Below, in pieces: positions 8,614-60,005 of a stretch of 64,000 nucleotides of DNA. The stretch's first letter is position 1. Each line of letters opens with the position of its first letter. A model generated the notes under the pieces. The model was not told the DNA's origin and made no database searches. It worked only from the letters and a program-made list of their open reading frames with translations. This stretch comes from a virus (lineage: Duplodnaviria > Heunggongvirae > Uroviricota > Caudoviricetes): the IMG/VR virus record IMGVR_UViG_3300023179_004209, positions 231,832 to 295,831 of that record; one strand, written 5' to 3'. The position numbers and the translations under genes are program-made.

Positions 8614-8892
8614 ATGAATAAAAAATTAGAATTAATGGTAGAATTAATGTATGTAATGGGACAATTTGGCAAAAACTTGACCGCAGAAAAAACTGCGGAA
8701 ATTATAGAACGAGATGGTAGTGTTGTTACAGGTTTTGTTGTGACTGACAAATATGGTAATGTTGGCATCATTGACAAAGGTGCGGTAAAATGGATTGACA
8801 AAGCTAAATTTTATGGTATGATGCATAATGAAATTGAATTTAACGGAGATGATTTGGTGAAGAGTGTAGAATCATTTGCTAAGACTATATGA
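8614..8892 (+). CDS. hypothetical protein; C-terminal 20 aa paralogous to N-terminus of 11442..11786
   Basis: ORF; EIEFNGDDLVKSVESFAKTI. Confidence 0.5.
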   Translation: MNKKLELMVELMYVMGQFGKNLTAEKTAEIIERDGSVVTGFVVTDKYGNVGIIDKGAVKWIDKAKFYGMMHNEIEFNGDDLVKSVESFAKTI

Positions 8893-9065
8893 AGTATCAA
8901 ATTATAGAAAGATTTGCGTGGTATTTTCCAGATAATGATATTGAAGTAAGCGTTTATCGTAAACAAAGTTATTTTCGTAGATTTATTATGTGGTTGTTTT
9001 TTGATGCTGAACTACGGACCTACTACAAGACACTTGACACTTGTAAGGTAAAAAAAGGTTGATAT
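8889..9065 (+). CDS. 58-aa hypothetical protein
   Basis: ORF below track cutoff, ATGA overlap. Confidence 0.3.
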
Positions 9066-9293
9066 ATGACTAAGAATGAGTTATTGAGTGCTTATAACAA
9101 GGTGTTGGCTGAGAATGTTGAATTACAGAATCAATTGGATTGGTATAAAAATTATGCTGATAGGTTGGTAGAACATAAGGATATGGTATGTTTACCGGCG
9201 GATTTGAAGAATTTGCGTGAAAGCAATCTAAAGTTGGCAACTGAGAATGAAGAGTTGAAGAAACTTATTATGGATAAGTGGTATGAAGATTAA
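9066..9293 (+). CDS. coiled-coil small protein
   Basis: ORF. Confidence 0.5.
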   Translation: MTKNELLSAYNKVLAENVELQNQLDWYKNYADRLVEHKDMVCLPADLKNLRESNLKLATENEELKKLIMDKWYED

Positions 9294-9558
9294 AGTTAAG
9301 AATATTAAGATTCCCAAATGTTTTCCGTATAAGGACTATACTTGTAAAGTTGATCGCCATAAATTTCACGCTAATTTATTTGAAGATAATGGTGGAGAGT
9401 TATCTGCAAAGATTGGTAGAGAGTTATATCTTGTCAAAGAAAATGGTAAATTGGAAGATTGGATTGATGAGGCTATGGAGATGAGTGATTTTTATCATAA
9501 TCTGGTTGACTTTCTAAAAGAAGTAAAGTATATTCATAACCAAGAGAAAAATGACTAA
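9283..9558 (+). CDS. hypothetical protein
   Basis: ORF. Confidence 0.5.
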   Translation: MKIKVKNIKIPKCFPYKDYTCKVDRHKFHANLFEDNGGELSAKIGRELYLVKENGKLEDWIDEAMEMSDFYHNLVDFLKEVKYIHNQEKND

Positions 9559-9913
9559 CGAAGAAATCAATAAAATTATTGCTGAATTTCGTGGGTGGGT
9601 GGAATATCATCCAACTCCAGAAAGCATATCCAAAGGATATCCTAGTTATTCTTATTGGACACCTCCGAGGGATTCAAAACAATTTGCTGAAAACTGGGGT
9701 AAATTAGAAATGGATTATCCGCCAGATTATTGTAATGATTTGAATGCAATGCATGACGCAGAAAATACACTAAATGATGATCAACAATATGAGTATGCTT
9801 ATGTGCTTGATGATTTGATTAAAAATCGTTCTTGTGAATTTGATTTGATTCACGCTTCTGCACGAATGCGAGCAGAAACTTTTGTAAGAACAATTAGTAA
9901 ATGGAAAGAATAG
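9551..9913 (+). CDS. hypothetical protein
   Basis: ORF. Confidence 0.5.
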   Translation: MTNEEINKIIAEFRGWVEYHPTPESISKGYPSYSYWTPPRDSKQFAENWGKLEMDYPPDYCNDLNAMHDAENTLNDDQQYEYAYVLDDLIKNRSCEFDLIHASARMRAETFVRTISKWKE

Positions 9914-10041
9914 TATGATTAAACAAACAAAAAAACATAGATTTTATGCGTGGTTACTTAAACATTTGATTTTGCCAAAATGTCTAAGAATGAGGCTTAT
10001 TAAAAAAGTAAGTGACACTGCTCAATATTGAATGTCAACAA

Positions 10042-10064
10042 CCCCTAGGATAAAGCCATAGGGG
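10042..10064. repeat. IS end hairpin CCCCTAGG-ATAAAG-CCATAGGGG (right end, overlaps tnpB stop)
   Basis: 8-bp stem with A bulge; near-identical copy at 11323-11345. Confidence 0.6.
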
Positions 10065-11211
10065 CTTGTAATGCTGTTGCTTTCACAACAGGCTTACATA
10101 CATTTGGCTGGTTGACGACAGCCTGCCCGTAAGTCAGGTAATTAGTCTGTGATACGGGAAGTTTGGACAATTTAGCAATATTGATTGCCGCATTAATGTC
10201 CGCATCATAAATAAGTCCATTCTTAGAGTAAAATCTACAACCTCTTCTTTCTCCATCACGATTTCCAGTTACACTATCAATCTGTGATGTATAATAAGGG
10301 CGAACTAGTAGAACCAATTTACCTTGATTCTCTGCCTTATAGCTTATTACTCTACGAAGTTCAAATATTGGAACTTGTCCAATTGAACGCTTATTTTGAT
10401 ATTTATTTTTTTTCTTTTTTATACCGACAAGATTTTCAAGCACGATTGTATCTGCTTCTGTGTTTAAAACTTCATTAGCAATCAAATGTGTTTGATTTCT
10501 ATTTTTGTTAGATTCTTTATGTTTTAACTTACGAAGATGTCTTCTGGCACTTTTAGTGCTTTTGGATTTGAGACTATCTTTTAAATGTCTCAATCTACGC
10601 TTATCTCCATTAAACTTTCTATCAATAATTATTCTACCATCACTACAAGCTGCATTACGACGAATGCCGATATCTACTCCTAAAGCGAGTTTTTGTTTTA
10701 ATGGTTCTTTAGGTTTATTATCAAATGTAAATGATATAAATAATTTACCATCATTTTCATAAATTAGAGGATCTGTATATTCATATTTGTCCAATAATTC
10801 CTTTAGTTTAGGATACACTACAAATTTAAATGATTGTCTTCCAGAAGTAGTAGTTATACGGATTGAATATTTATCAGTTTTGTTTTTTGAATAAAGTCTT
10901 TTATCTAAACGCATGGAAAGGTTTTTCTTTTCAATTGATTTTTTTAATCTGTGTTTATTTGACTTTGTAGATTTATAACTTGATAAACATTCTTGTTCTG
11001 CTTTAATAATAACTTGTGATGGTATATTTGGATATTGTTTTCTAATGTTATTATAAACTTTAGAATGTAAAACTAACAAACTATTTTTTGTTTCATTGAA
11101 TTGATGTTGTGAAGCAAAATTAAATACAACTTTATGCATTTCAAGAATTGACTTTAAACTATCAAAGTCTTCTTGATTTTTCATTAAAAGTTGTGTATTA
11201 TATGATATCAC
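10045..11211 (-). CDS. tnpB: TnpB (OrfB) RuvC-like RNA-guided nuclease family protein
   Basis: RuvC-I GVDIGIRRNAA, RuvC-II IVLENLVG, RuvC-III YDADINAAINIAK; zinc-finger Cys mostly lost. Confidence 0.75.
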   Translation of the reverse strand: MISYNTQLLMKNQEDFDSLKSILEMHKVVFNFASQHQFNETKNSLLVLHSKVYNNIRKQYPNIPSQVIIKAEQECLSSYKSTKSNKHRLKKSIEKKNLSMRLDKRLYSKNKTDKYSIRITTTSGRQSFKFVVYPKLKELLDKYEYTDPLIYENDGKLFISFTFDNKPKEPLKQKLALGVDIGIRRNAACSDGRIIIDRKFNGDKRRLRHLKDSLKSKSTKSARRHLRKLKHKESNKNRNQTHLIANEVLNTEADTIVLENLVGIKKKKNKYQNKRSIGQVPIFELRRVISYKAENQGKLVLLVRPYYTSQIDSVTGNRDGERRGCRFYSKNGLIYDADINAAINIAKLSKLPVSQTNYLTYGQAVVNQPNVCKPVVKATALQAPMALS

Positions 11212-15625: not shown

Positions 15626-15997
15626 ATGACACGGCAAATTAAATTTAGAGTATACAATAACAAACAAAACAAATGGGTTCACGGACCTGGCAATGAAGTG
15701 AATTTGTTTGGAGAAACAATTTTGTTTGGGGCATTTATGAATAATGTTCCTACAGAAGAATTGAATGATTGCGTTGCACTAGAATACACTGGCTTAACTG
15801 ATAAAAATGGTAAAGAAATTTACGAGGGTGATATTATTCATTTAAAATTTGGTGAGTTAAATGCCAACCTTGTGGTAAAGTGGGATAAATATATGGGCTT
15901 GAAATACCATAATGGAGGATGGACTTCTATGGTGCATGTTAATACCCACGGAGAAGTAATTGGCAATATTTTTGAACATAGTGAACTATTAAACTAA
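15626..15997 (+). CDS. YopX-like phage protein (paralog 1)
   Basis: YTGLTDKNGKEIYEGDII motif typical of the YopX family. Confidence 0.45.
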   Translation: MTRQIKFRVYNNKQNKWVHGPGNEVNLFGETILFGAFMNNVPTEELNDCVALEYTGLTDKNGKEIYEGDIIHLKFGELNANLVVKWDKYMGLKYHNGGWTSMVHVNTHGEVIGNIFEHSELLN

Positions 15998-15998
15998 T

Positions 15999-16430
15999 AT
16001 GAACAGACCAATTAAATTTAGAGTTTGGCTACCGTCACTAAATAAATTTGGTAGTGACAATAGTGTTTTTATGGATTGTTATGGTAAACTATATGGCGTT
16101 ACCAGACCCAGTTTAGTTGATGATTCACGAAGTATTGTCAACATTGGCCAATTCAAAGAATTTAGCGGACATACAATTCAATGGTATACTGGCTTAACTG
16201 ATAGCAACGATAAAGAAATTTACGAAGGTGATATTCTAATGTATAAGTCTGGTTCTATACCTACAACAGGTGTAATAGGACAAGTATTATATGAAGCTGA
16301 TGAAGGCGGTTATATCTTTCAATGGGAACGAAAAGGACCAAATCAACATCATATCAACCTAAATTGTGATGTAGCATTTGAGTCCGTCATTGTTGGCAAT
16401 ATTTTTGAACAAAGTGAACTATTAAAATGA
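15999..16430 (+). CDS. YopX-like phage protein (paralog 2)
   Basis: YTGLTDSNDKEIYEGDIL; shared C-terminal GNIFE(H/Q)SELL. Confidence 0.45.
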   Translation: MNRPIKFRVWLPSLNKFGSDNSVFMDCYGKLYGVTRPSLVDDSRSIVNIGQFKEFSGHTIQWYTGLTDSNDKEIYEGDILMYKSGSIPTTGVIGQVLYEADEGGYIFQWERKGPNQHHINLNCDVAFESVIVGNIFEQSELLK

Positions 16431-23688: not shown

Positions 23689-24033
23689 ATGACTAAAGAA
23701 CAATTAAAATCATTGATTAGAGAATGTGTTTGCGAAATCCAACAATCATTGGAAGAAAAGAAACAAAAGAAAAAGGAAGCTCCTAAAGCACCAGAACCAA
23801 AAGCTGCAGCAAAACCAGCTCCAGTAAAGAAATTGGTAAAGAAACCAGTTAAAAAGAATTTGGCAAAGGTAGCACCACCAAAGGATAAATTGACCACATT
23901 TGACGCAGTTCAATTGGCAAGAAGAGCAGCTGATGCAGAAAAGAGAGGCAACAAACAAGCTGCTAAGGATTTGAACTTGGCTAAGCAAGCAGCTAACTAT
24001 ATGTTAAAGACTGGTAAGACCAAGGTAGATTAA
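23689..24033 (+). CDS. histone-H1-like Lys/Ala/Pro-rich DNA-binding protein with propeptide-like N-terminus MTKEQLKSLIRE
   Basis: KAPEPKAAAKPAPVKKLVKKPVKK low-complexity basic region; start adjusted to ATG after TATATTTATA. Confidence 0.55.
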   Translation: MTKEQLKSLIRECVCEIQQSLEEKKQKKKEAPKAPEPKAAAKPAPVKKLVKKPVKKNLAKVAPPKDKLTTFDAVQLARRAADAEKRGNKQAAKDLNLAKQAANYMLKTGKTKVD

Positions 24034-26025: not shown

Positions 26026-27453
26026 ATGACCGTATCTGAATTAAAATCATTAATAAAAGAAGTATTACTTGAAGCAGTACCATTTGATAAATCAACTGAT
26101 ATTGAATACGGACTAAAAGCCAAGTATGATGAATTGGGCGATTATACATTTGGTGTAGAATTTGAATTTGAACCTGTTGTAGAAGAACAGAATTTATCAA
26201 TGGATCAAATCATAGAAAAGTTGTCAGAGTTGATGGGATCATCATACCGTTATGATAATGGATTAACTGACGCATATAATTCGTGGGTTGAAGAACAAAG
26301 AAAAGAAGCGGCTTGGAAATGGAACCGATATGGAACCATTGATAATATTGATAGATATGATGAAGAATATGGTCCAATGAGTGTAGATACATTTGATAGT
26401 AGTGTTCCAGAACCAGAAAGAAATGATTTTGATAGTGATGATGAATACAATGAAGCATATGAAAAATATGATGAAGTAAGAAATGAAATAGACAGTGAAT
26501 ATGATCGTTGGGAAAGAAGAAATCGAGGTGATTATGTTGATGAATATTTAAGACTTTTAGCAAGAAGTGGAGAATGGACTGATTTTATTCCAGATAGTGA
26601 AATGACTGTAACTGATATGGAAAATGGTATTGATTCTGCGTATAACTTATTAGATAGTTTGGGTGAAGATGTAAGAAAAGATGATAAACCAGATAAAAAT
26701 ACATGGGCAGTAGGAGAAGACGGACCAAATGTTGAAATAAGAAGCAGACATATGAGACAAACTGGTCATGATTTTAATATTATTTCCAAAGTAGGAAATT
26801 GGGTAAGTGATCAAGCAACACACGGTAAAACTGGGATGCATATTCATATAGGAGTTCCAAGTGATTTTGATATGTTTGATGTATTGGCAATGAGTACATT
26901 GGTTGATGAAAAAGCTATTAAATCTGAAGTAGCCATGGATAGAGATTTTAACAGTTTTGCTAAATTGAGAAGAAGTTTGAGTAACGCAATTTATAACAGA
27001 ATTCATGAATACATGCGTAGACAATCTGAAAATGTACCAAAATCTTTTATTCTTACAAACGCACAAATGAAAGAAATATTATCTGGATTTGATCGTAATC
27101 ATGGTACAAATATTGCAGCATTTAGTGAACATAAAACAATTGAATTTAGATATTTGGGATCTGATATGGCAGATCAAGTATTAAAGTGGATATCTTATTT
27201 CTTGTTGTTACCTCGTATTGCTAAGAGTAGAAATCAGATAAAATTGGATACTATTTATAATGAACAAATAGTAGCTACCAGATTACCAGGCAAGATTAAA
27301 TTTGATTTGTTTAAGACTGATGAACCAAGAACTAGTGTTCCAATGCCAAAAGAACCTGCAGATTTAATCAAACAAAAAGCATTTGAATTACCAAGCAAAT
27401 TGGATATTGCGAAACAACAAGCTGCGGTTAAAAAACAATCGGGAACACAATAA
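26026..27453 (+). CDS. acidic protein with propeptide-like N-terminus MTVSELKSLIKE
   Basis: ORF; D/E-rich first half. Confidence 0.55.
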   Translation: MTVSELKSLIKEVLLEAVPFDKSTDIEYGLKAKYDELGDYTFGVEFEFEPVVEEQNLSMDQIIEKLSELMGSSYRYDNGLTDAYNSWVEEQRKEAAWKWNRYGTIDNIDRYDEEYGPMSVDTFDSSVPEPERNDFDSDDEYNEAYEKYDEVRNEIDSEYDRWERRNRGDYVDEYLRLLARSGEWTDFIPDSEMTVTDMENGIDSAYNLLDSLGEDVRKDDKPDKNTWAVGEDGPNVEIRSRHMRQTGHDFNIISKVGNWVSDQATHGKTGMHIHIGVPSDFDMFDVLAMSTLVDEKAIKSEVAMDRDFNSFAKLRRSLSNAIYNRIHEYMRRQSENVPKSFILTNAQMKEILSGFDRNHGTNIAAFSEHKTIEFRYLGSDMADQVLKWISYFLLLPRIAKSRNQIKLDTIYNEQIVATRLPGKIKFDLFKTDEPRTSVPMPKEPADLIKQKAFELPSKLDIAKQQAAVKKQSGTQ

Positions 27454-32431: not shown

Positions 32432-33199
32432 ATGAAAGTCATCAAAGGAGACGTAAACTTAGATTGTTTAAATTTGAGAGAAATACCGGAAATTATCAAG
32501 GATGTTTCAATTGAAGGATCATTAAGTTTATATAATAACAATTTGCGTAGTCTTAAAAATTGTCCTAAAAAAATTATACGTCATTTAAATGTGGCTAATA
32601 ATAGAAGTTTACGTTCATTGGTTGGTGGACCAGAAGAAGTAGGTGCTATTGATGTACATAATTGTAATCTAACAAGTTTAGAAGGATTTCCAAAGATAGT
32701 TAAATCTGGCAATTTTTTAGGTGGTCGTGTAGATGTTAGTGGTAACAAATTGACTTCATTGGTTGGTTTACCAGAAGAATTGTCGGAGTTAGTGATATAT
32801 AATAATCCTGGTCTTAAAACATTGCAGGGTTGTCCTAAAATTATCCGTGGTGGTTTTGAAGCATTATGGTTACCAATTACCAATATGATTGGCGGTCCAA
32901 CTGTAATATATGATGATTTGTTGTTGTATGATACAGAAATAAATTCGTTGGAAGGATTTCCAAAAAAAGTTGGTGGCAACATTTTTCTAGGCAATACACC
33001 ACTTGGTAGTATATTATTTCCTAACAGAGTAACACCAGAAACAAAGAAAAAATCTGAGGAATTAATAAATAAAATACACAGTATATGTGATATTGGAGGT
33101 GGTATATACAGAACTGCAGATGATATTGAAGAAGAAAATCCAGAAATAGAAATGGATGATTATGAACCAGATGAATATGGAGGATTTCGCAGAGTATGA
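32432..33199 (+). CDS. LRR protein paralog 1 (LPX-type 20-22-aa repeats NxLTSLxGxP)
   Basis: about 9 repeats, e.g. NNLRSLKNCPKKI, CNLTSLEGFPKIV, NKLTSLVGLPEEL. Confidence 0.6.
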   Translation: MKVIKGDVNLDCLNLREIPEIIKDVSIEGSLSLYNNNLRSLKNCPKKIIRHLNVANNRSLRSLVGGPEEVGAIDVHNCNLTSLEGFPKIVKSGNFLGGRVDVSGNKLTSLVGLPEELSELVIYNNPGLKTLQGCPKIIRGGFEALWLPITNMIGGPTVIYDDLLLYDTEINSLEGFPKKVGGNIFLGNTPLGSILFPNRVTPETKKKSEELINKIHSICDIGGGIYRTADDIEEENPEIEMDDYEPDEYGGFRRV

Positions 33200-33921
33200 A
33201 ACGCAAACATTTTTATGATAATGTAGAATTAGATCATCTATTTCTAAAAGAAATACCAGATAATATTGCAATGTATGCGTGTCATGGTTTATATGATATA
33301 TCTGATAATAAACTTACATCATTAAAAAATTGTCCGTCATTTGTAAAAGATAATTTTAATTGCAGCCTTAATAACTTAACATCATTAAGAGATGGTCCAC
33401 AAGAAGTTCAAGGAAGTTATAATTGTGCTGATAATAAAATAACATCATTGGATGGTATTGCAAAAATTATTGGAGGAGGTGTAGATGTATCATATAATCA
33501 ATTGTCATCATTACAAGGTATTCCAACACTAAAATCTAATAGATTATTAAAAGTGAGTGATAATAAAATTACAAGTTTGATTGGATATGGATTTGAGTCA
33601 ATTGAATTTAGTTCATTTGATGTAACCTCAAATAAATTAACATCATTGGCAGGTAGTCCATATAGAGTGAATGCAAATTATGAATGTGATGCTAATCCAA
33701 TTGAAAACTTTGTGGGTGGTCCTAAATTTGTTGGAAGAAATTTTTATGCAACAAGTTTACGAAGTTTAAAATCAATTGAAGGATTACCACATGTAATTGA
33801 AGGTAGATTATTTATCAGTATGATTGATATGCGTAGAATATTTCCTGGTCTTGCTGACGGAAACATAATAAAAGAAATTAGATCTATCAGCAACATTATT
33901 GGTGGTATAGCTACAATATAA
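33196..33921 (+). CDS. LRR protein paralog 2
   Basis: NKLTSLKNCPSFV, NNLTSLRDGPQEV, NKITSLDGIAKII... Confidence 0.6.
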   Translation: MKRKHFYDNVELDHLFLKEIPDNIAMYACHGLYDISDNKLTSLKNCPSFVKDNFNCSLNNLTSLRDGPQEVQGSYNCADNKITSLDGIAKIIGGGVDVSYNQLSSLQGIPTLKSNRLLKVSDNKITSLIGYGFESIEFSSFDVTSNKLTSLAGSPYRVNANYECDANPIENFVGGPKFVGRNFYATSLRSLKSIEGLPHVIEGRLFISMIDMRRIFPGLADGNIIKEIRSISNIIGGIATI

Positions 33922-33925
33922 AATT

Positions 33926-34657
33926 ATGAAAAAAATAGAAGGATATGTAGATTTAAGTGATTATGACTTCAAAGAAGTACCGTCAATATTAAATGATGTT
34001 AGTATTGAAGGTATTCTAAATATAGCTGATAATCGCATAAAAAATTTAAACAACTTTCCTTTAAATTGTGAATCTGTTTATTTGTCAGGAAATCCATTAA
34101 CTAGTTTAGTTGGTATAAAACAAAAGTATATAAGGGATTTGGAAGCAAGTAGAACAAAGATTCAAAATTTGGAAGGATGTCCTGAAATTGTATCACAACT
34201 TTTAATAAAAAACTGTGCATCATTTAATAGTTTAAAAGGAACTTTAAAAGAAATCTCAGGTCAACCCGCATATTTGACTATAAGAGGTACTTCATTACAA
34301 ACATTAGAATATTGTCCAAAAACAAATAATAATGTTAGTTTTCGTCTTGATTTTAATAAAATAACATCATTAGTTGGTCTGCCAAATAAATGTCGTGATC
34401 TACATATCAGTGATAATAACTTAACTAGTCTAGTTGGATGTCCTCAACATATCAAGGGTGATTTTTATTGTAATAATAACAATTTGAAAACATTTGACGG
34501 ATTTCCCAAAGTAGTTGAAGGTATCATATATATGACACTTTCACCTATGTATGACAATCCATTGATGATGCAATCATATTATTTTGAAAAAGAAATTAGA
34601 AAAAGATGTAAAGTTTATGGTATATCATTGACTGAACCAAAAAATGTACAAATTTAA
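33926..34657 (+). CDS. LRR protein paralog 3
   Basis: same repeat type; N-terminal DFKEVPSILNDVSIEG shared with paralogs 1 and 4. Confidence 0.6.
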   Translation: MKKIEGYVDLSDYDFKEVPSILNDVSIEGILNIADNRIKNLNNFPLNCESVYLSGNPLTSLVGIKQKYIRDLEASRTKIQNLEGCPEIVSQLLIKNCASFNSLKGTLKEISGQPAYLTIRGTSLQTLEYCPKTNNNVSFRLDFNKITSLVGLPNKCRDLHISDNNLTSLVGCPQHIKGDFYCNNNNLKTFDGFPKVVEGIIYMTLSPMYDNPLMMQSYYFEKEIRKRCKVYGISLTEPKNVQI

Positions 34658-34668
34658 TAACTGATAAT

Positions 34669-35349
34669 ATGGGAAAATATATAAAAGGAGATGTAACATT
34701 ATCTGGACTTCATTTAAAGAAGCTGCCTGAAATATTAAAGGATTTAACAATTGAAGGCAGTATATTTTTGAGTGGAAATCAGCTCACTACATTAGAAAAT
34801 TTCCCGGAACTTGTAACGGAAAATATAATGTTAGGTTCAAATCCATTGGTTAGTTTAAAAGGTATAAAACAAACCGCTGTATCAACATTATCCATAGATA
34901 ACGGTAAATTTAGTAATTTGGAAGGATGTCCATCACACATTAATAAATTAAATATAGTGGGTAATAGTAACTTAAAAAGTCTAAAGGGACTTGCACCTCA
35001 TTTAATATCTTTAAAAATTATAGGTACACCATTGCAAACAATGGAATATTGCAATCAAAATATTCACGGTACATATCATCTTGAATTTAATTTATTAAAA
35101 TCTCTGGTTGGAATGCCAAAACAATGTAGAGAACTAAAAATAGGATTCAATCAATTAGAAAATTTTATTGGTGCTCCTGAAGTTGTACTTGGAGATTTTC
35201 AATGTTATCATAATCCAATACTATCATTGGAAGGATTTCCAAAATATGCAAAAAGAGTGATTATTAATAATTTTATGAAAGACAGAGAACTTACAAGAAG
35301 AGATGTAGCAAGAGTGTGTGAAGCAGAAGAAATTGTCATTTCAGTATAA
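34669..35349 (+). CDS. LRR protein paralog 4
   Basis: LHLKKLPEILKDLTIEGS; NQLTTLENFPELV etc. Confidence 0.6.
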   Translation: MGKYIKGDVTLSGLHLKKLPEILKDLTIEGSIFLSGNQLTTLENFPELVTENIMLGSNPLVSLKGIKQTAVSTLSIDNGKFSNLEGCPSHINKLNIVGNSNLKSLKGLAPHLISLKIIGTPLQTMEYCNQNIHGTYHLEFNLLKSLVGMPKQCRELKIGFNQLENFIGAPEVVLGDFQCYHNPILSLEGFPKYAKRVIINNFMKDRELTRRDVARVCEAEEIVISV

Positions 35350-49771: not shown

Positions 49772-50395
49772 TTAAGGATTGATTGGATCTGGTGGTGTAG
49801 GAGACATGATTGTTAATGTTGCTGGATTGCTTGTTACGGTTTGACCGTTGTTTCCAGAAACGATAACTGTATAAGAACCTGCGTCACTTTCTTGAACACT
49901 TGCAATTGTATAAGTTGAATTAGTAGCATCAACTATATTTGTACCATCTTTAGTCCATTGGTAAGATAGATCTGATGGACCACTTGCAACCACAGTAAAT
50001 GTTAATGATGAACCAGTTGGAACTGCTTGATTAGCTGGTTGTTGTACAATTGAAGGTGGCAACCAAGGTAGAGGTAGAATTACTACTGGTGGATTGATTT
50101 GATTATCAATTTGATTTTGAACATTGGTTTCGTAACTATTTTTTTGTTCAGTACCCATCGAATCCCAAACCCATCCAAGAACTTGATCTTGAGTTAATTG
50201 GTTATAAGGAGTAAATTGTGAACCAGAATGATATGTTACTCCTGTTGCGCCATAAACTCTACCATTATATGTGATATTATTTACTGTTTCGGAACCAACG
50301 CAGTCCCAATGAACTGTAAATACTACATCTGTGTTTTGTTCATATGTAGGATAACATTCTAATGTTCCCACTCTCCAATTAATTGTTGCGCTCAT
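49772..50395 (-). CDS. protein with C-terminal Ig-like domain (N-terminal domain paralogous to next gene)
   Basis: TGSSLTFTVVASGPSDLSYQWTKDG..DAGSYTVIVSGNNG I-set-like pattern. Confidence 0.55.
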   Translation of the reverse strand: MSATINWRVGTLECYPTYEQNTDVVFTVHWDCVGSETVNNITYNGRVYGATGVTYHSGSQFTPYNQLTQDQVLGWVWDSMGTEQKNSYETNVQNQIDNQINPPVVILPLPWLPPSIVQQPANQAVPTGSSLTFTVVASGPSDLSYQWTKDGTNIVDATNSTYTIASVQESDAGSYTVIVSGNNGQTVTSNPATLTIMSPTPPDPINP

Positions 50396-50409
50396 ATTAT
50401 TTTATTAAA

Positions 50410-50793
50410 TTAAGGTTGTACACTACCAGTTGATTGCCATGGTAGAGGTAAGTTTACGATTGTAGGATTGATCATTTGTTGAACTTGATCGGTAACATAA
50501 TTATCGATTGCATCTTTTTGAGATCCGATTTGTCCAAATACCCATCCCATAACAATTTGATTTGTTAGTTGGCTGAATGGAACAAAGCTACCACTATCCC
50601 ATGATCCACTATTTAATGTTAATTCTGTAGTATTTGGGTAGTATGTTTTTACTTCGCTTCCACTTTGTGGTCCTACTTGAGCTATACCAGAACCGATACA
50701 ACTCCATCCTACTTTAACTACTACATCTGTATATTGATCGTATTGAGTATAACATTGTATACTGTCAACATTGTAATTGATTGTTACTGCCAT
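50410..50793 (-). CDS. paralog of N-terminal domain of 49772..50395
   Basis: MAVTINYNVDSIQCY vs MSATINWRVGTLECY; shared VILPLPW motif. Confidence 0.5.
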   Translation of the reverse strand: MAVTINYNVDSIQCYTQYDQYTDVVVKVGWSCIGSGIAQVGPQSGSEVKTYYPNTTELTLNSGSWDSGSFVPFSQLTNQIVMGWVFGQIGSQKDAIDNYVTDQVQQMINPTIVNLPLPWQSTGSVQP

Positions 50794-56868: not shown

Positions 56869-57084
56869 ATGGCAGATAATAATAAAACTCCCTACGAATT
56901 GCGTTGGGAAATTCTAAAAGAAATGATCGGTATTACCAGAGAAGAGTGGGCTACCAAAAAAGAGTTAGCTCAATACAACGCCGAAAAAAGTGGTAAATCA
57001 CTTGAATATATCGGTGATATTCCATTACACGATGCGTTGCAGCGTGCAGAAAATGTATATACATCGTTTATTTGTAAGAAGTAA
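56869..57084 (+). CDS. hypothetical small protein
   Basis: ATG behind SD-like AAAGGAAAAAT. Confidence 0.45.
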   Translation: MADNNKTPYELRWEILKEMIGITREEWATKKELAQYNAEKSGKSLEYIGDIPLHDALQRAENVYTSFICKK

Positions 57085-57106
57085 TCATTTAAAGAACTAA
57101 CAATGA

Positions 57107-57137
57107 CCCCCACTATTAATTTAGTGGGGGTTTTTTA
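57107..57137 (+). terminator. Rho-independent terminator CCCCCACTA..TAGTGGGGG (copy 1 of 3)
   Basis: near-identical copies at 58312 and 59206. Confidence 0.75.
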
Positions 57138-57161
57138 TTTTTTGTATATATTTATAATGAT

Positions 57162-58283
57162 ATGAGTAAACTACTTAATGAAACATTTCAAAAACATTTA
57201 GGACTTCTTAAAAAGAAACTTAATGAAGCAGGTCAATATGAATTACCTTTAAGTGGTGATACACAGTCAACTAATGATCTTAGTTCTGAAGTCAAGGATG
57301 AGTTTTGGAATAATTTTCAAAAGATGTCAGTTAAAGATTTCGTAGATAAATATGGAAAAAAATTTTCAGATCCTAAATTTCATGCATTTATAAGTGCAGG
57401 ATTGGGTGATAAAATAAATGATGAAGGTTTTGAAGTAACACAAGTTTCGCCATTGGTTACCACATTATCACCTACACAGAGGGAAATTGGATTTGGTAAT
57501 AGTTTAAATGATTTGATAAAAGCAACATACAATGAAAGTGTTCAATTAGAAGAACTTGATAATATGTTAAAAGGCAAAAATGTCAAATTAAAAGCAAAAA
57601 CAGGTGAAGTACCAATAGTAATTTTTAATAATAAATATATAATAGATGGACATCATAGATGGAGTAAAATTTATTGTGCTAACAAAACCGCAACAGTATT
57701 TTGTTTGAATTTTGAATGTCCGGCTTTAAAAAATGATCCTTCAATGGCATTAAAAGCGTTTCATTTAGCAATTGCTAAAATGTTAAAAAATTCTCCAACT
57801 GAAAATAAATCCGGTAAAAATTTATTTGAATCAAATAGAAATGAAGTATATCAATATATTTATGAAATATTAGTTTTACCACATAACAAAGCATTTTTAG
57901 ATGTATACAAAAAACATAGTAATCTTATAAATCCAAACTTAAATGAAGCGGAACAACTAGATTTGATTGATCCAGAAACAACATTAAATTCAAAAACATT
58001 GAAGTATGTAGATCCATTTGCAAAAACAGTTTCATTGTATATTTCTGATAATGCTGCAGCTTTAATAGGTAATAGTAAGCCTGCTACTGATACACCAAGA
58101 AGTCATATGCCTCAAACTGATAAAGCACCAGGATATGAAGATGCATTAGAAAAAGGTGAAATTAATTTCTTACCTGATAAAGTTACTGAAAAAATGGTCA
58201 ATGAAACATTTCAAAGACATTTGACTCTTCTTCACAAGAAGTTGAATTTAAATGAAAATGTAGACATCAATAACATACAATAA
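57162..58283 (+). CDS. protein with N-terminal MSKLLNETFQKHLGLLKKKLNE motif repeated near its own C-terminus
   Basis: ORF; C-terminal KMVNETFQRHLTLLHKKLNLNE. Confidence 0.55.
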   Translation: MSKLLNETFQKHLGLLKKKLNEAGQYELPLSGDTQSTNDLSSEVKDEFWNNFQKMSVKDFVDKYGKKFSDPKFHAFISAGLGDKINDEGFEVTQVSPLVTTLSPTQREIGFGNSLNDLIKATYNESVQLEELDNMLKGKNVKLKAKTGEVPIVIFNNKYIIDGHHRWSKIYCANKTATVFCLNFECPALKNDPSMALKAFHLAIAKMLKNSPTENKSGKNLFESNRNEVYQYIYEILVLPHNKAFLDVYKKHSNLINPNLNEAEQLDLIDPETTLNSKTLKYVDPFAKTVSLYISDNAAALIGNSKPATDTPRSHMPQTDKAPGYEDALEKGEINFLPDKVTEKMVNETFQRHLTLLHKKLNLNENVDINNIQ

Positions 58284-58311
58284 ATTGTAATTTAAAATAT
58301 TAATCAATAAC

Positions 58312-58340
58312 CCCCACTATTAATTTAGTGGGGTTTTTAT
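58312..58340 (+). terminator. Rho-independent terminator (copy 2)
   Basis: CCCCACTA..TAGTGGGG + TTTTT. Confidence 0.75.
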
Positions 58341-58386
58341 TTTTTGTATATATTTATATTTAACACAAAGGAAAAATTTTAAACAT

Positions 58387-59181
58387 ATGAGTGATAAACT
58401 AAACGAAACATTTCAAAAGCATCTTAAATTGCTTCACGAACACTTAAATATAAATGAAGCATATGGTGACCCTGCGCATCTTGATTGGGCTATGAGAGAT
58501 CCAGGTGAAAGACCTGATTGGGATCCTGATGGACTAACAGGAATAAAACAACCATCATCATATAGACCTGCACGAAATTACGATCCCGAAGAAGAAAAAA
58601 GAAATCAATTCAATAAAACTGTAGCAGGTGTTGCTAGAAATATGGGAGTTAACGGTTATGATTTAGTAAGATATTTAAATCAAATTAAACAAGACGGTAA
58701 AAAAGATTGGGAAACAACGGATGAATTAAATCCAGATAAGGATAGACAAATTTACGGACACGATAATTTTGACAAAGCTGCGTTTAAAAGATGGTTAGAG
58801 AGAGATAAAGAAGAATCAGAAAGAAATTATAAAGCCCGACAAGAAAAAGATAAACTAGAAGCACCATCCAGAGAAATTAATTCTGCAGCTGAAGCTATTA
58901 GTTCAGATATGACTCAGTTAATACATAGTATAGGTTTAATTAAATGGCAAGTATTTAAATTAAAAAGTTACGAAGGAAAACTTAAGTATTTAAGTGATCA
59001 TTTTGAAAAAAATGAAGATAAACTAAAAAATGATACATTCAAATACACAAGCGGCTATGAAGATCTTAAACCATACTTTGATAAGTATTCTGAAAACGAT
59101 CAAAAAGCTAAACTTATATTACTCGCAGCAATTAAAAAGAGTGAAAAATCATGGGCTGCTAGAGGATTTTTTGAACAATAA
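58387..59181 (+). CDS. protein with N-terminal MSDKLNETFQKHLKLLHEHLN motif
   Basis: ORF. Confidence 0.55.
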   Translation: MSDKLNETFQKHLKLLHEHLNINEAYGDPAHLDWAMRDPGERPDWDPDGLTGIKQPSSYRPARNYDPEEEKRNQFNKTVAGVARNMGVNGYDLVRYLNQIKQDGKKDWETTDELNPDKDRQIYGHDNFDKAAFKRWLERDKEESERNYKARQEKDKLEAPSREINSAAEAISSDMTQLIHSIGLIKWQVFKLKSYEGKLKYLSDHFEKNEDKLKNDTFKYTSGYEDLKPYFDKYSENDQKAKLILLAAIKKSEKSWAARGFFEQ

Positions 59182-59205
59182 ACTTATAAAATATTGAATC
59201 AATAA

Positions 59206-59232
59206 CCCCGCTATTAATTTAGTGGGGTTTTT
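59206..59232 (+). terminator. Rho-independent terminator (copy 3)
   Basis: CCCCGCTA..TAGTGGGG + TTTTTT. Confidence 0.75.
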
Positions 59233-59258
59233 TATTTTAAGTGGATATTTATATTGAT

Positions 59259-59645
59259 ATGACCAAGACACAATTGAAACAATTGATAAAAGAGTGTTTA
59301 AATGAAATTGATTTTGCACCTGGTTTTAGACCAACACATGATTTAACCATAGTTTCAACTGTTACTGGTAGTGATGTAGATGATTTAAAAACTTATATAT
59401 TAGAATTACATAGAGTTTTAAAAGCTAATTTTGGTAATGATGTACAGTTTGAAGAAAAATTAAAAATGTCTATGTTGTCAAACGGAGATAAAAAAATTGA
59501 AACCACATTCACTATTATTGATATAATTGATGATTTAATGTCAAAAACAGTAAGAGAAAATCTACAATATATACATGAACAATTAACAATGTGGTCAATA
59601 AATCAAGATTTAGTAATAGACTTTACTTTCAAGATTAAAAAATAG
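59259..59645 (+). CDS. protein with propeptide-like N-terminus MTKTQLKQLIKE
   Basis: start adjusted to ATG after TATTTATATTGAT. Confidence 0.5.
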   Translation: MTKTQLKQLIKECLNEIDFAPGFRPTHDLTIVSTVTGSDVDDLKTYILELHRVLKANFGNDVQFEEKLKMSMLSNGDKKIETTFTIIDIIDDLMSKTVRENLQYIHEQLTMWSINQDLVIDFTFKIKK

Positions 59646-59650
59646 ATAAG

Positions 59651-59686
59651 AAAAAACCCCACCGTTAAAAGTGGGGTTATTTGTTT
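59651..59686. terminator. bidirectional Rho-independent terminator
   Basis: AAAAAA-CCCCAC..GTGGGG-TTATTTGTTTG between convergent genes. Confidence 0.65.
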
Positions 59687-59687
59687 G

Positions 59688-60005
59688 TTAGTTCTTCTTT
59701 GGTTTTGTTGGTCTATCACCATCTTTTGATGGACCATCATGTTTTGGACCTCTTGGACCACCTGGTGGTGGACCAAAACTTCTCAAAGTCTTACGATCAT
59801 CATCACTGACCTTGGTGCGTTCTTCCTTGTCCAACTTACCGTCTTTGTTTGCGTCATATTTAGCAATTAATTCAGCACGTTGCTTCTTTTGTTCCTCAGT
59901 CAACTTTGGACGGGGAGGACGGCCTTCACCTGGAGGTGGACCTTTTGGACCTTCTTGAGCATTTAGGGTAAATGCTGCGGCTAATACTAATAGATACTTA
60001 TACAT
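59688..60005 (-). CDS. secreted EF-hand calcium-binding protein
   Basis: signal peptide MYKYLLVLAAAFTLNA; canonical 12-residue loop DANKDGKLDKEE; Pro/Gly-rich flanks. Confidence 0.6.
   Translation of the reverse strand: MYKYLLVLAAAFTLNAQEGPKGPPPGEGRPPRPKLTEEQKKQRAELIAKYDANKDGKLDKEERTKVSDDDRKTLRSFGPPPGGPRGPKHDGPSKDGDRPTKPKKN

Follow-up and report, generated by a model that had tools for sequence, protein, structure and literature searches.

What is the role of a peptide that a phage protein carries at both of its ends? The question is raised by a group of neighboring genes, here called ORF1, ORF2 and ORF3, all on the plus strand of a 64-kb stretch of the Caudoviricetes virus record IMGVR_UViG_3300023179_004209 (hereafter the window, which means the whole of the DNA analyzed). 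A preliminary description of this DNA had reported a peptide, LNETFQKHL..LL..KLN, at the N-termini of ORF1 and ORF2 and again at the C-terminus of ORF1, and the open reading frames and their sequences are as it claimed; in full, the peptide reads (L/V)NETFQ(K/R)HLxLLxKKLN(L)NE. We refer to the peptide as the NETF tag. Our answer, to which we assign a probability of about 0.55, is that the tag would act as a propeptide or linker that targets proteins to the prohead in the manner of the capsid-targeting sequence (CTS) of phage T4, and that would be cut by a gp21-type protease.

The repeat at the two ends of ORF1

The product of ORF1 begins with MSKLLNETFQKHLGLLKKKLNE and reaches its stop codon as ...KMVNETFQRHLTLLHKKLNLNENVDINNIQ, also written ...DKVTEKMVNETFQRHLTLLHKKLNLNENVDINNIQ. 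Local alignment of residues 1-30 to the rest of the protein gave a score of 74, compared with 25.4 ± 4.0 for shuffled sequences, and none of 2000 shuffles equaled it. The Shannon entropies of the two tags (2.99 and 3.23 bits) are barely under the mean of ORF1 (3.40 ± 0.18 bits), so that the repeat is not an artefact of low complexity. Chance and low complexity were both rejected as its source by these two tests. A six-frame fuzzy search of the 64 kb located the motif at three sites only, the two ends of ORF1 and the N-terminus of ORF2. In alignments, the C-terminal copy of ORF1 falls into register both with tags inside fusion proteins and with those at the N-terminus of ORF2-family members. 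According to the preliminary description, a C-terminal copy private to this phage and lying in low-complexity sequence would point to a chance duplication. Instead, a C-terminal or internal copy was found in essentially all homologs down to ~40% identity. The homologs keep both copies over the same range, including a covarying variant, FESTF.

A portable tag on unrelated proteins

The conserved peptide of ~20 residues is a portable modular tag, widespread in uncultured T4-like phages of freshwater lakes. When a profile of the motif was searched exhaustively with HMMER against 1.84 billion cluster representatives, 78 of them were matched at E≤1e-3, or 76 without the false positives P0146 and P0166. 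The consensus, x(L/V)NETF(Q/K)(K/R)HLxLL(H/K)xxLN(L/I)NE, forms an amphipathic helix and starts nearly always at residue 3-5 of proteins that are 38-476 aa long. Splitting these proteins at the tags and clustering the cargo gave about 35 unrelated families, including two ParB-like subtypes and ORF2-like, J-domain, leucine-rich repeat and PGDYG-like proteins. Searching with a degenerate DNA pattern brought up 17 loci in IMG/VR and at least 120 in metagenomes, and tandem arrays comprise up to five consecutive tagged genes per contig. The bracketing of ORF1, which had been singled out as unusual, is real, but in many relatives the "C-terminal copy" is a junction between domains, and the peptide is general, being found on ~30 or more cargo families.

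Codon use for Leu varies freely within the tag, and paralogous copies are only 61-89% identical in nucleotides. This synonymous variation shows that selection acts on the peptide, and a DNA- or RNA-level element was rejected on the same ground. A 2A-like or intein-like self-processing peptide was set aside, since to our knowledge the tag does not resemble these motifs, for which no search was made.

Since the tag is rich in Lys and Leu and amphipathic, it could be a membrane-targeting or other generic helix, for example a degron or a chaperone-binding signal, that localizes or regulates early proteins; cargos with a transmembrane (TM) domain fusion (P0136) and with a J-domain do exist. The invariant N-E-T-F..H positions, however, argue for specific recognition by a protein and not for a lipid-binding surface. 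This explanation would also leave without a cause the rule at the tag boundary and the association of one cargo family with head modules, both described below, and we consider it hardly likely at all.

Several of the tagged proteins deserve a separate mention. The J-domain proteins P0169, P0185, P0192, P0194 and P0197 are of the DnaJ type, with the HPD motif intact. In P0136, L104 and L107, a multi-TM domain of ~200 aa is followed by an internal tag and then by a PGDYG-like or "..ALLNAIQTP" module. A different, "type B" leader stands on three unrelated proteins of the window and closes each time in hydrophobic-x-E (a slash, here and below, follows the closing Glu): MTKEQLKSLIRECVCE/I in the gene at 23689, MTVSELKSLIKEVLLE/A in an amidoligase-like protein of 475 aa (26026..27453), and MTKTQLKQLIKECLNE/I in ORF3 (59259..59645). 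The same type of leader heads an extra N-terminal domain of the ParB-like proteins P0028, P0040, P0049 and P0060, in which the NETF tag is C-terminal only. The ParB-like protein of Microcystis phage Mel-JY01 has a related leader, MGILKQLLKEIEDE.

ORF1 and ORF2 as modules, fused or separate

Judged by profile match and an invariant motif, the core of ORF1 is ParB-like; its role as cargo is predicted. It matches ParBc_2 (PF08857) with 24.7 bits at a cutoff of 23.6, and the motif IDGHHRWS (the DGHHRW block) is invariant across 50 homologs. In the AlphaFold2 model, residues 42-335 have a predicted local distance difference test (pLDDT) score above 90. The two tags appear as isolated predicted helices (residues 2-22 and 341-361, pLDDT ~55-65), the N-terminal one being tethered by a disordered linker (residues 22-41). 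The best Foldseek matches, all of them weak, were ParB-N (5k5d, E 4e-3, probability 0.9), Atu1540, ParB-CDP and sulfiredoxin, with low TM-scores of 0.17-0.43. The model of ORF2 shows the tag as a helix (2-19), then disorder (20-66), and at the end a domain of helices (130-264) with pLDDT about 90; in the alignment of the ORF2 family every invariant column lies inside the tag. Neither ORF2 nor ORF3 belongs to a family in Pfam, PHROG or NCBIfam.

In the homologs of ORF1, the ParB core and the motif are followed by any of at least four unrelated modules. The first is PGDYG-like, starts with NVDINQVASTLQFKP and scores 22.8 bits against PGDYG (PF14083), under the 27-bit cutoff; the others are an ORF2 homolog, a module starting SMSIEDLATVSD and a module starting YPDPKTVFD. 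The homologs of ORF1 and ORF2 are thus found in one frame in P0006, P0013, P0010 and P0079, where the motif is the joint, and the N-terminal tags of standalone ORF2-family proteins align in exact register with the internal tag of the fusions. By this comparison ORF1 consists of a ParB-like module and, behind it, what is left of a truncated PGDYG-like module, the eight residues NVDINNIQ before the stop codon. The same stub is present in P0025/L011. Other homologs stop right past the motif (LLYKSIN or LYKKLKLN, then a stop).

The FESTF clade, at ~40-45% identity, has the covarying variant at both ends, MN(L/I)FESTFEKHKKL.. at the N-terminus and ..(L/I)FESTFNKFKNLYTK before the stop codon, and its ParB gene is the sole carrier of the tag within ±10 kb. 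Within this clade, pairwise identity is 0.86 in the N-terminal tag and 0.68-0.79 in the C-terminal tag, as compared with 0.83 in the DGHHRW block and 0.3-0.6 in most other 15-residue blocks. Both copies are under strong purifying selection. Bracketing was also found in a second ParB subtype (L096/L103) and in a protein that is not ParB-like, P0155. Other lineages have matching N- and C-termini made of different peptides (P0057, z=6.8; P0077, z=4.7).

One might see in the C-terminal copy a recombination scar, a functionless remnant of the 5′ end of the next tagged gene, left by fusion or deletion when tag-coding sequences or hairpin cassettes recombined. In favor of this, the NVDINNIQ tail does come from a truncated module, modules are found both split and fused, the invariant GAAACATTTCAA core could act as microhomology, and promoter-early stem-loop (PeSL) cassettes are known to drive such shuffling (PMC2839356, PMC4122927). 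A scar would account for the origin of the arrangement but not for its persistence: terminal copies with nothing behind them were kept over a divergence to ~40% identity as strongly as the catalytic motif. They are also kept in the FESTF clade, which has no other tagged gene in the surrounding ±10 kb, in the second ParB subtype and in P0155, and the independent lineages P0057, P0077 and L082 built the both-ends design with different peptides. Because the copy is conserved across homologs, in the second ParB subtype and in P0155, it is neither chance nor a neutral scar, and we hold this origin without function to be highly unlikely.

The tag mostly ends in a candidate cleavage site where cargo follows

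The preliminary description had noted that the motif ends in LNE, which fits (L/I)xE. We counted the boundaries of 192 tag occurrences (129 N-terminal, 31 internal and 32 terminal). [LIV]xE closes 117 of the 129 N-terminal tags and all 31 internal tags, hence 148/160 of the tags with cargo behind them. Among the 32 tags that end a protein it closes six, and three of these six are stubs of truncated modules; the terminal tags end just before the Glu, for example as ...KLKLN and a stop. VTE, LTE, ITE or VAE was found within 8 residues upstream of 26/32 terminal copies, and [LIV]xE within 8 aa upstream of 17/31 internal copies. From these patterns we infer that the end of the tag is a candidate (L/I)xE cleavage site of the gp21 type.

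The ParB-like family and the phage head

A single-query search of IMG/VR with ORF1 gave no relatives. With the family alignment, 80 loci encoding ParB-like homologs of greater divergence were recovered. The gene of the ParB-like protein begins 4-12 nt past that of the Peptidase_S77 protease in five distinct lineages, and precedes the genes of the scaffold and of the major capsid protein (MCP). This adjacency points to a place for the ParB-like family in the head core or interior of many uncultured T4-like phages. Several other lineages have the ParB-like gene on the same strand as terL, 0.8-1.5 kb upstream of it. The head-linked homologs have short leaders that close in (L/I)xE and are followed by an acidic linker. 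In one of the five lineages (L041), the next ORF after the ParB-like gene encodes 140 aa and combines a type-B leader with a scaffold-like tail (..GNKWKKLANG before the stop).

All 76 gp22-like scaffolds detected (76/76), and that of Mel-JY01, end in (I/V)(L/I)(S/T/N)E/...R(W/F/M)(K/Q)KLA(G/N)(L/I).. In 42 further loci, too, the scaffold closes with an (I/L/V)xE site and this tail, ...R(W/F/M)(K/Q)KLA(G/N)(L/I)K. The tail, of ~15 residues, looks like a cleavable peptide, probably shell- or core-binding, that is universal in this T4-like superfamily. The C-terminus of P22-type scaffolds binds coat protein; binding of coat by the gp22 tail is assumed from other phages. Many ParB-like homologs end in the scaffold-tail peptide, others begin with it, and L082 has it at both ends. 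Five of the six best non-scaffold matches to a profile of the tail are at ParB-like termini, ParB-like proteins being 80 of the 2,432 ORFs searched, and these matches are individually borderline (independent E-values of 0.017-0.048). Since sister lineages carry copies of the scaffold tail or other matching terminal peptides, the both-ends design and the use of a head-assembly peptide are, on these comparisons, traits of the ParB family, the peptide itself being lineage-specific.

The propeptides of the MCP carry LISE/A and LLDE/A in the context of Mel-JY01. One NETF-tagged gene lies directly 3′ of an MCP gene and a GIY-YIG endonuclease, and 73 head modules of matching GC content (34-36%) share the C-terminus of that MCP; the MCP propeptide in the 73 modules carries LLDE/A. 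Their scaffolds keep the tail RFQKLAGIKK, so the NETF tag is not a copy of the scaffold tail. A DNA pattern made from the C-terminal tag of the FESTF clade matched ParB-like genes only in IMG/VR, and no scaffold.

Two candidate links were tried and rejected. The conserved internal helix of the scaffold, NLLNAKLLYTNKLF, has no significant similarity to the tag (tag hidden Markov model ≤4.7 bits, E>1). A fragment of MCP next to a tagged gene (L258) led, via P0202, to a phage of 44% GC without tags, and was set aside as a different phage.

The endonuclease at L258:416-1159 is a homing endonuclease of the GIY-YIG/NUMOD3 type, right after the MCP gene of a NETF-tag phage, and T4 has the order 23-segD-24 at the same place (segD, L397:1562-2233). 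L323 has its MCP divided between two ORFs, 8618-9952 and 10001-10390.

The tag could also be explained without any capsid, as a cytoplasmic docking or oligomerization helix that joins the tagged proteins to each other or to a hub, proteins with two tags such as ORF1 being bivalent connectors. Such a use would be in keeping with the amphipathic helix, its hydrophobic stripe and its flexible linkers, with a tag that works at either terminus and between domains, with N- and C-terminal copies that covary between the NETF and FESTF clades, and with a gene location in a plastic, early-looking region; moreover, neither the NETF tag nor a partner for it was found in head modules. Yet docking in the cytoplasm does not explain why (L/I)xE is present when cargo follows and missing when the tag is terminal, nor, in sister lineages, the position of ParB-like genes beside that of the prohead protease and the copies of the scaffold tail that their products carry. 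The placement at residue 3-5 in nearly all cargos is, besides, typical of a leader or propeptide and not of an oligomerization domain. We think this explanation, the main rival of ours, improbable, if worth keeping in mind.

Comparison with known packaging signals

All that the internal proteins of T4 have in common is the CTS, MKTYQEFIAE, which gp21 cleaves once (PMC3012670, PMC8442874). In this peptide, targeting needs residues 4 and 7 and processing needs residues 8 and 10; an Asp at position 10 stops cleavage but not targeting (PMC9026906). The NETF tag is like the CTS in that it is a short N-terminal peptide on otherwise unrelated, non-essential and fast-evolving proteins, and closes in (L/I)xE followed by Ala. 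Both are found on tandem genes in plastic regions, the T4 genes ipIII and ipII (L014:1804-2385 and 2501-2803) both starting with MKTYQEFIAE/A, and the CTS, too, is portable to foreign cargo (PMC9026906, PMC8442874). The NETF tag differs in being twice as long (~20 aa), in its use at the C-terminus and as an in-frame linker between domains, and in its presence on ~35 cargo families and in arrays of up to five genes. The resemblance of the two peptides is limited to T-(Y/F)-Q-x-x-(I/L). As relatedness in sequence is wanting, our claim is that the tag works like the CTS and not that it is a homolog of it.

A closer parallel for the two ends of ORF1 is T4 Alt, which is trimmed by gp21 at both ends, at ITE-6 and LTE-619 (PMC5694885, PMC9026906). 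ORF1 has a site-like LNE past its N-terminal tag and VTE before its C-terminal tag. The VTE, LTE or ITE ahead of C-terminal copies in general resembles the two sites of Alt. The propeptides of Alt have not been reported as copies of one peptide, whereas the ends of ORF1 carry the same helix, and its sites are predicted only. The ejection proteins of giant phages (phiKZ, SPN3US) likewise have conserved N-terminal propeptides on diverged head-internal proteins, cut at xxE motifs and sometimes at multiple sites, and the paralogs gp53 and gp54 have identical N-termini of 15 residues (PMC5694885). These propeptides are unlike the tag in that they are usually longer than 100 residues, have the motif (A/S/G)xE and belong to a different phage lineage; use in polyproteins or as linkers is not described there. 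The gp22-like tail, R(W/F)xKLAGI, has the same layout of a site and a terminal helix as the C-terminus of ORF1, the NETF tag being a different peptide.

The N-terminus of T4 gp22 itself (L398:2118-2927), MLKEQLIAE/AQK, shares (L/F)IAE/A with the CTS, MKTYQEFIAE/A, a match that is too short for statistics. The CTS of T4 may also be a mimic of a scaffold terminus.

A model for loading and release of tagged proteins

In the model that we favor, the tag helix would dock the cargo onto some part of the prohead core during assembly, after which the shell would enclose the docked proteins. The gp21-type (Peptidase_S77) protease would cut after the (L/I)xE that closes each tag, and probably also after the (V/L/I)TE ahead of C-terminal copies. 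The freed cargo, comprising the ParB-like protein, ORF2 and others, would stay in the head and be injected with the DNA. Modules of tag and cargo would work either as separate genes behind cassettes or as in-frame polyproteins with the tag as a cleavable linker, and recombination in the tag-coding DNA and between the repeated cassettes would shuffle them. Fused and split arrangements would then be functionally equivalent, which would explain their coexistence and the retention of the (L/I)xE boundary. Docking, packaging, cleavage at LNE, INE or VTE and injection of the tagged proteins are all proposed here by analogy. The preliminary description had offered a second cleavage site or a docking peptide as alternatives; both are compatible with the evidence, and taken jointly they form the best-supported, if still putative, model.

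A number of observations weigh against this model. The NETF tag has no detectable homology to the CTS, and tblastn with the tag found no cultured phage, while the T4 CTS as a query found 334 records. Genes for Peptidase_S77, scaffold and MCP are absent from the 64-kb window and from the ±10 kb covered. The tagged genes are located in an early-looking plastic region behind terminator/promoter cassettes. Some cargos, such as the J-domain proteins and the TM-domain fusion, are not obvious passengers of a capsid. Head genes lie within 10 kb of 22/80 distant ParB-like loci, a proximity not far from random expectation, and only the immediate adjacency is striking. The association with the head comes from distant homologs (<35% identity) with other tags. 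No NETF tag is present in the 73 matching head modules, where the scaffold keeps its own tail, and the tag profile matches no head-module protein significantly. The boundary counts include phylogenetically related sequences, although the rule still holds across independent cargo families.

A wider proposal, which we put forward tentatively and think somewhat more probably wrong than right, is that aquatic T4-like phages fill the capsid with a large, rapidly shuffled repertoire of proteins destined for injection, by means of lineage-specific "address" helices that are independent of orientation, some of them copied from the scaffold terminus. The NETF tag would be one such system, expanded to dozens of cargos and to a protease-cleavable linker of polyproteins. 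The two-tag ParB-like protein would be a conserved internal head protein, possibly a bivalent organizer of cargo or a factor associated with the DNA end.

If the tag is a capsid-loading signal, it would provide a handle, readable from sequence, on the proteins that T4-like phages of freshwater, abundant but uncultured, inject; some 35 families can be seen so far, and candidate factors for anti-defence and host takeover would be among the injected proteins. The CTS concept would be widened to tags at the C-terminus, tags at both ends and tags that serve as cleavable linkers in polyproteins. By recombination within the tag, new delivered proteins could arise in one step, and the ParB-like protein would be nominated as a widespread component of the head interior. 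The copying of the C-terminal scaffold tail by the termini of cargo suggests a simple principle for the evolution of packaging signals. Engineered delivery of proteins by phage capsids could likewise profit from a second natural targeting tag of greater length.

Repeated cassettes around the tagged genes

The almost identical terminator that had been described near each gene was recovered. The hairpin CCCCACTATTAATTTAGTGGGG is matched at 57108, 58312 and 59206 (the last with one mismatch), where the chance expectation is zero copies, and all three were called terminator-like. They lie within 2.1 kb, and none is found elsewhere in the window. Copy 1 is the terminator of an upstream 71-aa gene and the 5′ boundary of the ORF1 cassette. 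The repeat outlasts the hairpin: a T-run and the AT-rich GTATATATTTATA(A/T)TGATATG reach the start codons of ORF1 and ORF3, whereas upstream of ORF2 there is an extra insert of ~27 nt with the ribosome-binding site AAAGGA. The same hairpin flanks tagged genes in four related loci (L010-L013). ORF3 is a member of the same cassette array as ORF1 and ORF2, and in L010, L012 and L013 tandem ORF3-like genes come after the tagged genes. The positions of all these features are collected in Table 1.

A scan for sigma-70 consensus promoters called none in the cassette, though the AT-rich stretch TTTTTTGTATATATTTATAAT is conserved; the promoter status of the AT-rich leader is for this reason conjectural. 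PeSL cassettes mediate modular shuffling in the plastic regions of T4-type phages (PMC2839356, PMC4122927). The repeat resembles them in its near-identical stem-loop terminators and AT-rich promoter-like sequence between small variable ORFs of a plastic region, gene content among relatives changing at the cassette boundaries (PMC2839356, PMC4122927). It differs from them in that no sigma-70 consensus was called in the cassette and in that the repeat runs on into a conserved coding leader. Because of this last property, the shuffled unit is the cassette together with the tag.

ORF1 and ORF3 (57144..57164 and 59241..59261, versus 58346..58389 for ORF2) have no Shine-Dalgarno sequence, and their ATG lies 3-4 nt past a TATAAT/TATATT-like hexamer. 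The mRNAs of both genes could be leaderless or near-leaderless. The gene at 56869 has the same ACACAAAGGAAAAAT leader.

Table 1. Location of the tagged genes, tag copies and cassettes in the window, and of head-module genes at other loci
Feature	Position	Strand	Description and basis
Hairpin cassette copy 1	57105..57143	+	GC-rich stem, ATTAAT-type loop, T-run; terminator-like, 11 pairs; exact pattern match
Shared AT-rich leader GTATATATTTATAATGAT, right before ATG	57144..57161	+	Promoter-like, without Shine-Dalgarno; kept upstream of ORF1, ORF2 and ORF3
ORF1, tagged ParB-like protein (predicted cargo)	57162..58283	+	373 aa; ORF list
ORF1 N-terminal tag, aa 4-22, LLNETFQKHLGLLKKKLNE	57171..57227	+	Closes with LNE, then Ala; motif search, homolog alignment
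VTE, aa 341-343	58182..58190	+	Candidate second cleavage site just 5′ of the C-terminal tag; sequence pattern
ORF1 C-terminal tag, aa 345-365, MVNETFQRHLTLLHKKLNLNE	58194..58256	+	Motif search, self-alignment, predicted helix
Stub NVDINNIQ and stop codon	58257..58283	+	Apparent cut-off start of the PGDYG-like module; comparison with P0002-4, P0016, P0019, P0022-24
Hairpin cassette copy 2, with T-run	58312..58345	+	Pattern match, terminator call, alignment
ORF2, tagged protein (predicted cargo)	58387..59181	+	264 aa; start MSDKLNETFQKHLKLLHEHLNINE; helical C-terminal domain closing ...RGFFEQ
ORF2 N-terminal tag, aa 4-24, KLNETFQKHLKLLHEHLNINE	58396..58458	+	Closes with INE, then Ala; motif search, homolog alignment
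Hairpin cassette copy 3, one mismatch, with T-run	59204..59240	+	Pattern match, terminator call, alignment
ORF3, N-terminal type B leader MTKTQLKQLIKECLNE/IDF	59259..59645	+	128 aa; gene call in L001
ParB-like genes adjoining the protease gene	L046:7425-8246, L059:6375-7196, L048:1233-2099, L041:704-1732, L088:5706-6536		Gene adjacency
gp22-like scaffold genes	L121-L200, L324-L396, L015:23870-24967		76 of 80 MCP loci, 42 more loci and Mel-JY01

Genomic setting and other features of the window

The tagged genes are set in a T4-like plastic region rich in small ORFs; RnlA, a dCMP deaminase and a PNK-like kinase are encoded in the window. The ParB gene of relatives comes after a gp43-type polymerase and the clamp loader, and this polymerase is nearest to that of Mel-JY01 (42%), followed by KVP40-like and cyanophage T4-likes (~30%). 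A near-DNA search of the region against cultured phages gave no match, nor did tblastn against cultured phages with ORF2, ORF3, the protein encoded at 26026, the helicase or the bare tag. ORF1 and a head-module ParB-like homolog match one cultured phage only, Mel-JY01, whose ParB-like copy is without NETF tag. This phage, the nearest cultured relative, encodes Peptidase_S77, gp23 and gp20.

Converging on ORF3 from the minus strand is a 105-aa ORF (59688..60005) whose N-terminus, MYKYLLVLAAAFTLNAQ, resembles a signal peptide; the protein has repeats rich in Pro and Gly and matches the EF-hand (PF13202) weakly, under the cutoff. The ORF is flanked by a bidirectional hairpin at 59655..59678. A 388-aa ORF on the minus strand (10045..11211) matches phage transposase families (phrog_506, 9e-42), and by this match a mobile element appears to lie inside the plastic region of the phage. 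Tandem families of paralogs are found at 32432..35349, at 49772..50793 (minus strand) and at 15626..16430. Four consecutive paralogs share the N-terminus MK.IKGDV.L..L.L.EIPEI.KDVSIEG, two paralogs are DUF7936/Ig-like, and a further pair starts with MxRxIKFRV..

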